Assembly: GCF_003334355.1 (NCBI RefSeq)
Contig: NZ_QOWP01000009.1
Origin: Escherichia coli
GTDB lineage: Bacteria > Pseudomonadota > Gammaproteobacteria > Enterobacterales > Enterobacteriaceae
Strand: one strand, 5' to 3'
Length of the DNA: 64,000 nt
The notes below the pieces were generated by a model. That model saw only the letters and a program-made list of their open reading frames with translations, was not told where the DNA came from and made no database searches. Of the stretch, positions 19,425-22,914 are shown one piece after another. Position numbers and translations under genes: made by a program. How positions within the stretch are numbered: position 1 is the first letter of the stretch; each line of letters opens with the position of its first letter.

Positions 19425-19444
19425 TTTCCGCTATTAAGCAGAGA

Positions 19445-19477
19445 ACCCTGGATGAGAGTCCGGGGTTTTTGTTTTTT
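19445..19477 (+). terminator. Rho-independent terminator of rpoH
   Basis: Imperfect hairpin ACCCTGGA..TCCGGGGT followed by TTTTTGTTTTTT, 20 bp after the rpoH stop. Confidence 0.65.
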
Positions 19478-19694
19478 GGGCCTCTACAATAATCAATTCC
19501 CCCTCCGGCAAAACGTCAATCCCCACGCAGATTGTTAATAAACTGTCAAAATAGCTATTCCAATATCATAAAAATGGGGTATGTTTTAGCAGAGTATGCT
19601 GCTAAAGCACGGGTAGTCATGCATAAAACGAAATAAAGTGCTGAATCACAACACCACAACACACGTAATAACCAGAAGAATGGGGATTCTCAGG

Positions 19695-20798
19695 ATGAAT
19701 ATAAAGGGTAAAGCGTTACTGGCAGGATGTATCGCGCTGGCATTCAGCAATATGGCTCTGGCAGAAGATATTAAAGTCGCGGTCGTGGGCGCAATGTCCG
19801 GTCCGGTTGCGCAGTACGGTGACCAGGAGTTTACCGGCGCAGAGCAGGCGGTTGCGGATATCAACGCTAAAGGCGGCATTAAAGGCAACAAACTGCAAAT
19901 CGTAAAATATGACGATGCCTGTGACCCGAAACAGGCGGTTGCGGTGGCGAACAAAGTCGTTAACGACGGCATTAAATATGTGATTGGTCACCTCTGTTCT
20001 TCATCAACGCAGCCTGCGTCTGATATCTACGAAGACGAAGGCATTTTAATGATCACCCCAGCGGCAACCGCGCCGGAGCTGACCGCCCGTGGCTATCAGC
20101 TGATCCTGCGCACCACCGGCCTGGACTCCGACCAGGGGCCGACGGCGGCGAAATATATTCTTGAGAAAGTGAAACCGCAGCGTATTGCTATCGTTCACGA
20201 CAAACAGCAATACGGCGAAGGTCTGGCACGAGCGGTGCAGGACGGCCTGAAGAAAGGCAATGCTAACGTGGTGTTCTTTGATGGTATCACCGCCGGGGAA
20301 AAAGATTTCTCAACGCTGGTGGCGCGTCTGAAAAAAGAGAATATCGACTTCGTTTACTACGGCGGTTATCACCCGGAAATGGGGCAAATCCTGCGTCAGG
20401 CACGCGCGGCAGGGTTGAAAACTCAGTTTATGGGGCCGGAAGGCGTGGCTAACGTCTCGCTGTCTAACATTGCGGGCGAATCAGCGGAAGGGCTGCTGGT
20501 GACCAAGCCGAAGAACTACGATCAGGTTCCGGCGAACAAACCCATTGTTGACGCCATCAAAGCGAAAAAACAGGACCCAAGTGGCGCGTTCGTCTGGACC
20601 ACCTACGCCGCGCTGCAATCTTTGCAGGCGGGCCTGAATCAGTCTGACGATCCGGCTGAGATCGCCAAATACCTGAAAGCGAACTCGGTTGATACCGTGA
20701 TGGGTCCGCTGACGTGGGATGAGAAAGGTGATCTGAAAGGCTTTGAGTTCGGTGTGTTTGACTGGCACGCCAACGGCACAGCGACCGATGCGAAGTAA
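19695..20798 (+). CDS. livJ: Leu/Ile/Val-binding periplasmic protein LivJ
   Basis: ORF track 19638..20798; start at ATG 19695 ([23 protein letters not shown] signal peptide) gives 367 aa; paralog of livK. Confidence 0.93.
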
Positions 20799-20857
20799 TT
20801 GTTAATCGGCAACTTTGGGTTGCCGCCAAATTGCTAATATCGAGTACGTTGCTTCAT

Positions 20858-20957
20858 GCCGGATGCGGCGTAAACGCCTTATCCGGCCTACAAGATCCAA
20901 AGAAATCAGTAAATTGCAGCACACATTGTAGGCCTGATAAGCGTAGCGCATCAGGCA
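20858..20957. repeat. REP/BIME: two inverted REP units after livJ
   Basis: GCCGGATGCGGCGTAAACGCCTTATCCGGCCTACA (20858..20892) and inverted copy TGTAGGCCTGATAAGCGTAGCGCATCAGGCA (20927..20957). Confidence 0.85.
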
Positions 20958-20997
20958 ATTTCTCGTTGGTCATCACTTTTGAAATCAAACTTGACGA

Positions 20998-21381
20998 TTA
21001 ACGCTTTTCCCAGCCGCCCTGTTGTGCCGTAAATCCCAGTGCCTGCATAAACGCCGTCATCACACCGCGATCTTCCACGCCTGCATCCGCCATCCACCAG
21101 GATGAAACGCTGGGATTATCACGCAAAACCTCTTCCAGTAGATATTGCCCCACGCCGCGACGTCGGGTGACTTCCCGCACGCGCAGAGAATCCAGTGTTC
21201 CCCCAATGCCGCTCAAGGTTACGCGTACAGCCGCAAGCAGGCGCTCGTTAAAACGCGCGGCGTAGATGCGGTGGTTATCGTTAACCTGTAAAGAGGAAGG
21301 GGAATACTCCGGCCAGATCTTTTGCAGGTCAATCCGGTCCTGGTCGCTAAAGTTTTCTAATCGAATGATGGTCAGCTTCAT
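20998..21381 (-). CDS. panM: PanD maturation factor PanM (GNAT-like)
   Basis: 127 aa ORF between livJ and livK on the opposite strand. Confidence 0.85.
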   Translation of the reverse strand: MKLTIIRLENFSDQDRIDLQKIWPEYSPSSLQVNDNHRIYAARFNERLLAAVRVTLSGIGGTLDSLRVREVTRRRGVGQYLLEEVLRDNPSVSSWWMADAGVEDRGVMTAFMQALGFTAQQGGWEKR

Positions 21382-21804
21382 GGGTAACCCGTGTAAATCA
21401 CAAAAGTGGAACCAGTGTAGCGAAATAATTTAATCGGAGGCTTTCTCTTTTTTATTTCTTTTGGCAGGTGATTAATTTTTTAACAGCAATAATTACAAAG
21501 TTAAAACATTAGAGAATGAAAAATGTCCAGCATAATCCCCTGAATGGTAGTGAATTATTCCGCTCTTTGTGCCGTTATTTTATGCTGACAAAGGCACCTT
21601 TTTCTGTTTATCTATCAATAAATTCAGAATATTATCTGTTCTTAATCGACTGAAAAATAGGGATTTTAATCGCTATCATCACAAAATACTGCGCTAACCC
21701 CTTAATCAGACAGGTAAAAACAGTGCAGTATAAAAAAAGAACAGTCTGATTTGTTAACACATAAAAACAAAGCAACACAACATCACGAATGGGGATTTTT
21801 GACT

Positions 21805-22914
21805 ATGAAACGGAATGCAAAAACTATCATCGCAGGGATGATTGCACTGGCAATTTCACACACCGCTATGGCTGACGATATTAAAGTCGCCGTTGTCGGC
21901 GCGATGTCCGGCCCGATTGCCCAGTGGGGCGATATGGAATTTAACGGCGCGCGTCAGGCGATTAAAGACATTAATGCCAAAGGGGGGATTAAAGGCGATA
22001 AGCTGGTTGGCGTGGAATATGACGACGCCTGCGACCCGAAACAAGCCGTTGCGGTCGCCAACAAAATCGTTAATGACGGCATTAAATACGTTATTGGTCA
22101 TCTGTGTTCTTCTTCTACCCAACCTGCATCAGATATCTACGAAGACGAAGGTATTCTGATGATCTCGCCGGGAGCGACCAACCCGGAGCTGACCCAACGC
22201 GGTTATCAACACATTATGCGTACTGCCGGGCTGGACTCTTCCCAGGGGCCAACGGCGGCAAAATACATTCTTGAGACGGTGAAGCCCCAGCGCATCGCCA
22301 TCATTCACGACAAACAACAGTATGGCGAAGGGCTGGCGCGTTCGGTGCAGGACGGGCTGAAAGCGGCTAACGCCAACGTCGTCTTCTTCGACGGTATTAC
22401 CGCCGGGGAGAAAGATTTCTCCGCGCTGATCGCCCGCCTGAAAAAAGAAAACATCGACTTCGTTTACTACGGCGGTTACTACCCGGAAATGGGGCAGATG
22501 CTGCGCCAGGCCCGTTCCGTTGGCCTGAAAACTCAGTTTATGGGGCCGGAAGGTGTGGGTAACGCATCATTGTCGAATATTGCCGGTGATGCTGCCGAAG
22601 GCATGTTGGTCACTATGCCAAAACGCTATGACCAGGATCCGGCAAACCAGGGCATCGTTGATGCGCTGAAAGCAGACAAGAAAGATCCGTCCGGGCCTTA
22701 TGTCTGGATCACCTACGCGGCGGTGCAATCTCTGGCGACTGCCCTTGAGCGTACTGGCAGCGATGAGCCGCTGGCGCTGGTGAAAGATTTAAAAGCTAAC
22801 GGTGCAAACACCGTGATTGGGCCGCTGAACTGGGATGAAAAAGGCGATCTTAAGGGATTTGATTTTGGTGTCTTCCAGTGGCACGCCGACGGTTCATCCA
22901 CGGCAGCCAAGTGA
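21805..22914 (+). CDS. livK: Leucine-specific binding protein LivK
   Basis: ORF track 21751..22914; start at ATG 21805 ([23 protein letters not shown] signal peptide) gives 369 aa; highly similar to LivJ. Confidence 0.93.

Follow-up and report, generated by a model that had tools for sequence, protein, structure and literature searches.

How did two closely related binding-protein genes come to flank an unrelated gene on the opposite strand, and what do the long AT-rich stretches in front of them do? The question is raised by livJ, panM, and livK at positions 19425-22914 of a 64,000-nucleotide stretch of Escherichia coli DNA (contig NZ_QOWP01000009.1), hereafter the window. An initial annotation, made from the letters alone, had described livJ and livK as an old tandem duplication around panM and had proposed their long leaders as candidates for Lrp regulation or small open reading frames (ORFs). 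Our joint reading, which we regard as very probably correct, is that this is the LIV-I/LS locus, that panM and its AT-rich spacer are ancestral, that livJ was inserted in the stem of the Enterobacteriaceae, and that the locus is under Lrp and GcvB control.

Identity of the locus

The locus is the classical E. coli LIV-I/LS locus and is already known; it has long been studied, as the initial annotation recognized. Positions 19425-22914 are E. coli chromosome with 100% identity to strain 720632, and 5145 of 5426 complete E. coli genomes contain matches spanning at least 80% of this interval. The RefSeq annotation of the 720632 match and of MG1655 gives ftsX, rpoH, livJ, panM (panZ/yhhK), livK, livH, and livM. 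RefSeq and the NCBIfam families agree with the names first assigned to livJ, panM, and livK.

The livJ gene (19695-20798, plus strand) encodes the 367-residue precursor of the Leu/Ile/Val-binding protein (LIV-BP), and livK (21805-22914, plus strand), the first gene of livKHMGF, encodes the 369-residue precursor of the leucine-specific binding protein (LS-BP). Both match NCBIfam NF011933 over their full length (LivJ 697 bits, LivK 700 bits; curated cut-off 477). Their PDB counterparts are 1Z15 for LivJ and 1USG (also 2LBP) for LivK, and the mature chain begins at residue 24; the LivJ signal peptide has 23 residues. The panM gene (20998-21381, minus strand) encodes a 127-residue PanD maturation factor of the GNAT fold, which matches the NCBIfam equivalog NF033213 (189 bits over residues 1-126; cut-off 68). 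LivJ takes Leu, Ile, and Val and LivK leucine only, both in the periplasm and both feeding one LivHMGF ABC permease. The livJ gene forms its own transcription unit, livK stands at the head of the livKHMGF operon, and panM, divergent from livK, encodes the coenzyme A (CoA)-sensing activator of PanD.

MG1655 carries the same locus and gene order, with intergenic regions 98-99% identical. The differences are at the strain level only, comprising a 12-bp indel beside a bacterial interspersed mosaic element (BIME) and a few base changes. A published primer had raised the suspicion that livJ of K-12 begins with GTG; this was ruled out because MG1655 has ATG.

panM and its spacer are probably older than livJ

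We fetched 80 PanM-centred loci, one genome per species, covering 5 kb on each side of panM. All Enterobacteriaceae loci with enough flank have the order rpoH, livJ, panM, livK, livH, and livJ lies between rpoH and panM in 41 loci. No livJ is found between rpoH and panM in any of 26 loci from Pantoea, Erwinia, Mixta, Ewingella, Brenneria, and Providencia; the order in Erwiniaceae, Ewingella, Brenneria, and Providencia is rpoH, panM, a single binding-protein gene, and livH. The ends of panM and rpoH are 39-283 bp apart in most of these 26 outgroup loci, and a few Erwinia-type loci have about 2 kb of other DNA there. In all 26, panM is divergent from the lone binding-protein gene that heads livH, across a spacer of 385-463 bp. 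The spacer between panM and the binding-protein gene measures 385-471 bp in all 64 measurable Enterobacterales loci (mostly 395-427 bp; GC 0.32-0.43), and it contains sequence blocks common to Providencia through E. coli. The outgroup synteny and the shared spacer therefore indicate that panM and the long AT-rich spacer predate the duplication and that livJ is the added gene.

These loci also bear on the description of livJ and livK as a tandem pair around panM. That panM lies between them on the opposite strand is correct, and two paralogues in the same orientation, 1 kb apart with one small opposite-strand gene between them, are what a plain head-to-tail duplication followed by insertion of panM would leave behind. 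Such a history requires the gene between the copies to be younger than the duplication, whereas panM already stands beside rpoH and faces away from a single binding-protein gene in every one of the 26 loci outside the Enterobacteriaceae. The outgroup spacer has the same length and conserved blocks, so panM and the spacer are older than livJ. We consider it very unlikely that panM was the intruder.

The age of the duplication itself was examined with a neighbour-joining distance tree of 346 columns. LivJ and LivK form sister clades with the single-copy proteins outside (bootstrap support of 100 for LivJ, 100 for LivK, and 91 for LivJ plus LivK). Where the two clades are fixed for different residues, the outgroup is LivJ-like in 11 cases, LivK-like in 11, and neither in seven. 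A duplication before the Enterobacterales, with repeated loss of livJ in Erwiniaceae, Yersiniaceae, Pectobacteriaceae, and Morganellaceae, would accommodate the saturated synonymous divergence described below and the fact that LivJ is not closer to LivK than to the outgroup proteins. It would also require several independent clean losses from one short spacer, and the outgroup proteins fail to group with LivK, which occupies the corresponding position, given the monophyly of LivJ and LivK at 91% support. The even split of diagnostic states is moreover what is expected for an outgroup that branched before the duplication. An older duplication is accordingly improbable in our view, though less so than a late arrival of panM.

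Insertion of livJ in the stem of the Enterobacteriaceae, which we prefer, suggests the following sequence of events. The ancestor of the Enterobacterales would have carried rpoH, panM, and a binding-protein gene with livHMGF, with an AT-rich spacer of about 400 bp rich in Lrp sites. In the stem of the Enterobacteriaceae, a copy of the binding-protein gene would have been inserted into the short rpoH/panM spacer and become livJ, bringing with it at least about 45 nt of upstream sequence that include the C/A-rich site and the Shine-Dalgarno sequence. The BIME would have settled later between livJ and panM. Gene identities, gene order, phylogeny, divergence, and motifs are results of this analysis, and regulation by Lrp and GcvB is taken from published work; how livJ was inserted, and what each conserved block described below does, we infer.

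At mature positions 18, 100, and 276, LivJ and all 26 outgroup proteins have Tyr, Ala, and Phe, and LivK has Trp, Gly, and Tyr. We take these positions to be ligand-pocket differences between LIV-BP and LS-BP, which were reportedly described by Magnusson et al. in 2004. If the pocket positions are right, livK, the copy in the ancestral place, became leucine-specific, and the relocated livJ kept the ancestral pocket. The unmoved livK would thus have changed residues 18, 100, and 276.

In three loci, livK is mostly lost by internal deletion: Intestinirhabdus alba (locus L017, 4327-5000), an Enterobacteriaceae metagenome-assembled genome (L019, 4418-5000), and Pseudescherichia vulneris (L025, 4515-5000). 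What survives in each is the complete regulatory DNA in front of livK, the last 100 nt or so of the gene, and the hairpin behind it, which places livHMGF directly behind the livK control region. L019 and L025 have livJ, and the L017 locus stops just past panM. From these deletions, the leucine-specific protein seems dispensable.

The gap between livJ and rpoH is also variable. It measures 1.6-3.3 kb, against about 270 bp here, in Enterobacter, Phytobacter, and other genera including Klebsiella-type and Kluyvera loci. By eye, a 421-residue ORF in this gap in locus L012 (5447-6712) has the look of a class-III (GabT-like) aminotransferase, and L018 holds an aminotransferase-like ORF and a 506-residue ORF resembling a MocR/GabR-type regulator (6977-8242 and 8351-9871). 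We considered a panM remnant 5' of livJ, as a duplicated panM-livK unit might have left, and rejected it because the extra DNA between livJ and rpoH in other genera contains the class-III aminotransferase-like ORF, in some cases next to a large ORF resembling a regulator, rather than panM.

A comparable arrangement is argT-hisJQMP of Salmonella and E. coli, where a duplicated binding-protein gene with its own promoter stands beside an operon headed by its paralogue, with shared membrane components. As with livJ and livK, two paralogous binding proteins serve one permease. The argT and hisJ paralogues are directly adjacent, however, whereas livJ and livK are split by the unrelated, opposite-strand panM, which is older than the duplicate.

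Divergence of LivJ and LivK

Pairwise alignment bears out the paralogy: full-length LivJ and LivK have 77% identity (284 of 369 residues, 589 bits by BLASTP), which rises to 79% in the mature part, and the two genes are 74% identical in nucleotide sequence. Synonymous sites are nearly saturated, with a proportion of synonymous differences (pS) of 0.66 and synonymous and nonsynonymous divergences (dS and dN) of about 1.55 and 0.15. The divergence is even along the gene, and the duplication is indeed old.

The initial annotation had also pointed to the many stretches of identical protein sequence. They are present, and gene conversion between livJ and livK could in principle keep them; two identical nucleotide runs of 26-28 nt might be taken in its favour. 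Yet pS is 0.53-0.93 in each 40-codon window, even where the amino acid identity is 90-97%. The identical stretches, judged from these sequences, are therefore kept by purifying selection and not by recent gene conversion. Moreover, each paralogue forms a clade of its own with 100% support, and LivJ and LivK of one genome share 75-79% identity throughout the 36 genomes compared, which excludes concerted evolution. Gene conversion as the source of the identical stretches is thus hardly credible. The two copies have evolved independently since the duplication and have not been homogenised.

Outside the coding sequence, little common DNA is left. Similarity between livJ and livK can be traced from about -45 as far as the stop codon and no farther. 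Before the ATG, all that is left of it is a loose C/A-rich tract together with the Shine-Dalgarno block GAATGGGGATT. A profile of 65 livK-type upstream regions matches only the last 40 nt or so of the livJ upstream regions, and weakly (E 0.016-0.3). This search ruled out homology of the whole upstream regions, and a likeness between AAATAG...ATCA elements in E. coli was not significant.

The panM-livK spacer and Lrp control

The stretch at 21382-21804 is exactly the panM-livK intergenic region. It is 423 bp long with 33.3% GC, against 52.3% for the window, and falls in the lowest 2.6% of 423-bp windows. The initial annotation had its coordinates and AT-richness right and called it a leader; we read it instead as a divergent regulatory region for panM and livK, not demonstrably a leader.

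Several blocks in the spacer are conserved. Reading toward panM on the minus strand, a -10-like TACACT lies at 21419-21414 (TACAAT or TATAAT in other genera). Farther toward livK are CAGCATA (21528-34), GTTATTTTATGCTG (21574-87), the invariant palindrome CAGAATATTATCTG (21625-38), the 30-nt block CTTAATCGACTGAAAAATAGGGATTTTAAT (21641-70), and GCGCTAAC (21691-98). The blocks kept from Providencia to E. coli are CAGCATA, TTATGCTG, CAGAATA..., CTGAAAAATA..., and GCTAAC. The palindrome CAGAATATTATCTG reads as -10-like in both directions, as TATTAT toward livK and TATTCT toward panM, and both readings top the conservation-weighted promoter scans; it also fits an Lrp half-site. On these sequence features, CAGAATATTATCTG may serve as an operator or as the core of a bidirectional promoter.

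Candidates for the livK promoter disagree when they are drawn from the sequence. Conserved sigma-70-like sites lie 5' of livK at 21581-86 and 21630-35, and the conserved candidate sequences are TTTATC-17-TATTAT and TTCCGC-17-TATGCT. The strongest E. coli-only site is CTGAAA-18-TATCAT (-10 at 21674-79), which is not conserved in other genera, and a candidate picked by eye, CAGACA-16-TATAAA, is likewise confined to E. coli. Where the present sequence has TATCAT at 21674-79, MG1655 and other Escherichia have TATTAT.

The proposed Lrp regulation is well established (PMC2374795; PMC10127797), and a motif scan of both upstream stretches shows enrichment. The livK region contains eight matches to the Lrp consensus against 2.13 expected in composition-matched shuffles (P ~0.002) and five perfect YAGHAWA half-sites against 1.2 expected. 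It resembles Lrp promoters of the ilvIH type, in which degenerate AT-rich Lrp-consensus sites are clustered over about 200 bp. Published work shows that livK is activated by Lrp without leucine and repressed with leucine (PMC2374795) and that an lrp knockout strongly lowers livKHMGF expression (PMC11588850). By chromatin immunoprecipitation, livK-livJ is the sole one of 142 Lrp targets that keeps high Lrp occupancy after leucine addition (PMC10127797), which sets it apart from the other Lrp targets. Lrp controls both the livJ and the livKHMGF units and, according to the literature, stays on the DNA in the presence of leucine.

We found no link between Lrp and panM/panZ in the literature examined. 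In Providencia (locus L082), a relative of Proteus, panM is divergent from the Lrp-controlled binding-protein gene. We tentatively propose that the spacer of about 400 bp might be an order-wide Lrp platform driving transcription both ways, an idea that we hold to be rather doubtful.

The upstream region of livJ and GcvB control

The other stretch described as a leader, 19425-19694, is exactly the intergenic region between rpoH (18570-19424, plus strand) and livJ (270 bp, 41.5% GC). Only 104 of its 270 nt are leader; the remainder is the rpoH terminator and a promoter. The intrinsic terminator of rpoH (19441-19480, plus strand) was found by terminator scan as a 13-bp stem with a T-run, and its fold of -20.4 kcal/mol (z -3.5) was equalled by none of 200 shuffles. 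The predicted sigma-70 promoter of livJ (19558-19585, plus strand) consists of a -35 TTCCAA (19558-63), a 16-bp spacer, and a -10 TATGTT (19580-85). It is the best-placed conserved promoter-like site 5' of the transcription start, scoring above 3 bits in 30 of 41 Enterobacteriaceae sequences, and its blocks are conserved. The start site, 19591, is taken from the design of primer 5'LivJ-lac for a PBAD-livJ-lacZ fusion (PMC3536696, supplement). It lies 6 nt past the -10, which fits the promoter position, and defines a 5' untranslated region (UTR) of 104 nt (19591-19694, plus strand).

A predicted Lrp site lies over this start. The palindromic TAGCAGAGTATGCTG (19587-19601, both strands) has two mismatches to the Lrp consensus YAGHAWATTWTDCTR on each strand, with P ~0.006 against local dinucleotide shuffles, and it is nearly invariant across the 41 sequences.

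The C/A-rich tracts common to the two upstream regions are predicted targets of GcvB, for which duplexes were computed with the R1 region only. In the livJ 5'UTR, the pairing covers 19638-19674 (plus strand) at -28.2 kcal/mol, a value reached by 1.6% of shuffles, and is followed by the Shine-Dalgarno sequence GGGGA at 19682-86. In front of livK, it covers 21750-21789 (plus strand) at -33.5 kcal/mol, which none of 500 shuffles equalled, with the Shine-Dalgarno sequence GGGGA at 21791-95; this tract and the Shine-Dalgarno sequence are the only upstream DNA of livK that can still be aligned with livJ. GcvB R1 is known to control livJ (PMC3536696), and livK is among its listed targets (PMC9299463). 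GcvB controls both the livJ and livK units, its R1 region pairing with the C/A-rich stretch just 5' of each ribosome-binding site. The GcvB targets dppA and oppA are alike in having a C/A-rich element complementary to R1 adjoining the Shine-Dalgarno sequence.

Small ORFs and RNA structure

Could the AT-rich regions instead be long transcribed leaders with small ORFs (leader peptides), attenuators, or riboswitch-like RNA? The conserved sigma-70-like sites at 21581-86 and 21630-35, if used, imply a livK leader of 160-210 nt, and the 423 bp do contain mechanical ORFs of 42-48 codons. Each of these ORFs, however, is intact in at most eight of about 37 distinct orthologous sequences and shows no excess of third-position changes, and the MG1655 annotation is empty there. 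Across both intergenic regions, no ORF of at least 15 codons is intact outside Escherichia or shows codon-position bias; the small ORFs suspected in the leaders are thus not conserved beyond that genus. The small-protein literature examined yielded no data for this locus.

Structure searches gave a similar result. The Rfam scan returned no family match except the REP-derived naRNA4, which was below threshold. The folding energies of the upstream regions, computed on single sequences, are no better than those of shuffles (z ~0), and RNAalifold on the orthologous upstream regions gave no consensus structure (0 and 3 pairs). A terminator-like hairpin with a T-run 5' of livK (21706-11/21744-49) fails the covariation test and was rejected, with 44% of cells paired against up to 59% in slid controls.

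What does covary is one 5-bp helix in the livJ 5'UTR, AGCAC/GUGCU (19606-10 with 19638-42), and it speaks for the leader hypothesis. Among 27 Enterobacteriaceae, 91% of cells are paired, compared with 10-53% in slid controls; 13 cells show double changes, and none of 500 shuffles did as well. The helix was picked with the sequences already in view. Its loop is about 30 nt longer in Klebsiella, Kluyvera, Phytobacter, and Cedecea, and its 3' arm abuts the GcvB pairing site. Taken together, these results lend no support to small ORFs, attenuators, or riboswitch-like structures, and we judge it most improbable that these regions are such leaders.

The BIME and other 3' elements

The initial annotation had noted a REP/BIME after livJ, and this proved accurate. 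The BIME (20851-20962) contains a repetitive extragenic palindrome (REP) at 20858-20892 (plus strand), an inverted REP at about 20927-20958 (minus strand), and AATCAGTAAATTG between them. The inverted REP cores (20878-20891, plus strand, and 20928-20941, minus strand) are about 35 bp apart and lie between the convergent livJ and panM; a BIME is defined by two or more REPs that alternate in orientation within an extragenic spacer. The window holds seven REP cores against 0.02 expected; further cores at 26718-26781, 28402-28415, and 57777-57839 represent two inverted BIME-like pairs and one single REP. The arms of the BIME are 94% complementary, and it folds at -39.8 kcal/mol (z -3.3); the sub-threshold naRNA4 match lies here. 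The 112-bp element occurs at no fewer than 40 places per E. coli genome (median, 5426 genomes), as expected of a dispersed family.

By eye only, AATCAGTAAATTG (20904-20916) agrees with the IHF consensus WATCAANNNNTTR at 12 of 13 positions. The element may be a BIME-1/RIB; the BIME-1 (RIB/RIP) class has an IHF binding site between its two REPs. The 12-bp TTCTCGTTGGTC beside the second REP (20960-20971) is found here and in Escherichia sp. E1V33 and is missing in MG1655.

In E. albertii, E. whittamii, and one record labelled E. coli (loci L003, L005, and L006), the panM-livJ spacer is about 946 bp long, against about 200 bp here. In L006 (5381-6181), the minus strand encodes an 88-residue TacA-like antitoxin (Pfam PF08681, E 9e-26) and a 175-residue GNAT acetyltransferase, which by sequence look like a TacAT-type toxin-antitoxin pair. 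The spacer that holds a BIME here would thus hold a toxin-antitoxin pair in related Escherichia.

Two hairpins follow the binding-protein genes. An 8-bp hairpin right after the livJ stop (20807-20825, plus strand) has -11.3 kcal/mol and z -1.0, which is weak alone. Between livK and livH (from 22962, plus strand), a GC-rich 9-bp hairpin (22923-22943, plus strand) has -17.8 kcal/mol and z -2.3, and a GC-rich hairpin of other sequence stands 3' of the binding-protein stop in most of 19 other species. The livK-livH hairpin may act as a stabiliser or as a partial terminator that sets the ratio of binding protein to permease.

Points against the joint reading and implications

Several points weigh against the joint reading. 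LivJ-LivK identity (79% in the mature part) is not above LivJ-outgroup identity (73-80%), and the LivJ plus LivK node, with its 91% support in a 346-column distance tree, could be a rate artefact. The outgroup genomes may carry a second binding-protein gene outside the 5-kb flanks. The diagnostic positions are symmetric (11/11/7), and only at the three pocket positions is LivK the derived copy. As a motif, the Lrp consensus is weak, giving 74 matches against 72 expected across the window, and only its local density is significant. Finally, the literature examined gave no transcription start for livK.

This is a textbook locus, and its chief worth here is as a positive control that was correctly read. 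What goes beyond annotation is the order of events, with panM and the spacer first, livJ inserted, and livK carrying derived residues 18, 100, and 276, which will be of little surprise to a specialist.

The conserved spacer may be of wider use. A map of its invariant blocks upstream of livK could guide the dissection of why Lrp persists so unusually at livK-livJ when leucine is present, for which an "other factor" has been invoked (PMC10127797). If the spacer is an Lrp platform driving both genes, its invariant blocks that do not resemble Lrp sites would be candidates for that factor. The same platform would couple panM, and hence PanD maturation and pantothenate/CoA synthesis, to the leucine/Lrp signal alongside branched-chain amino acid uptake. 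A Proteus mirabilis lrp mutant needs pantothenate (PMC2374795, methods), a requirement for which such a platform would account. The proposed link between Lrp and panM expression is testable.

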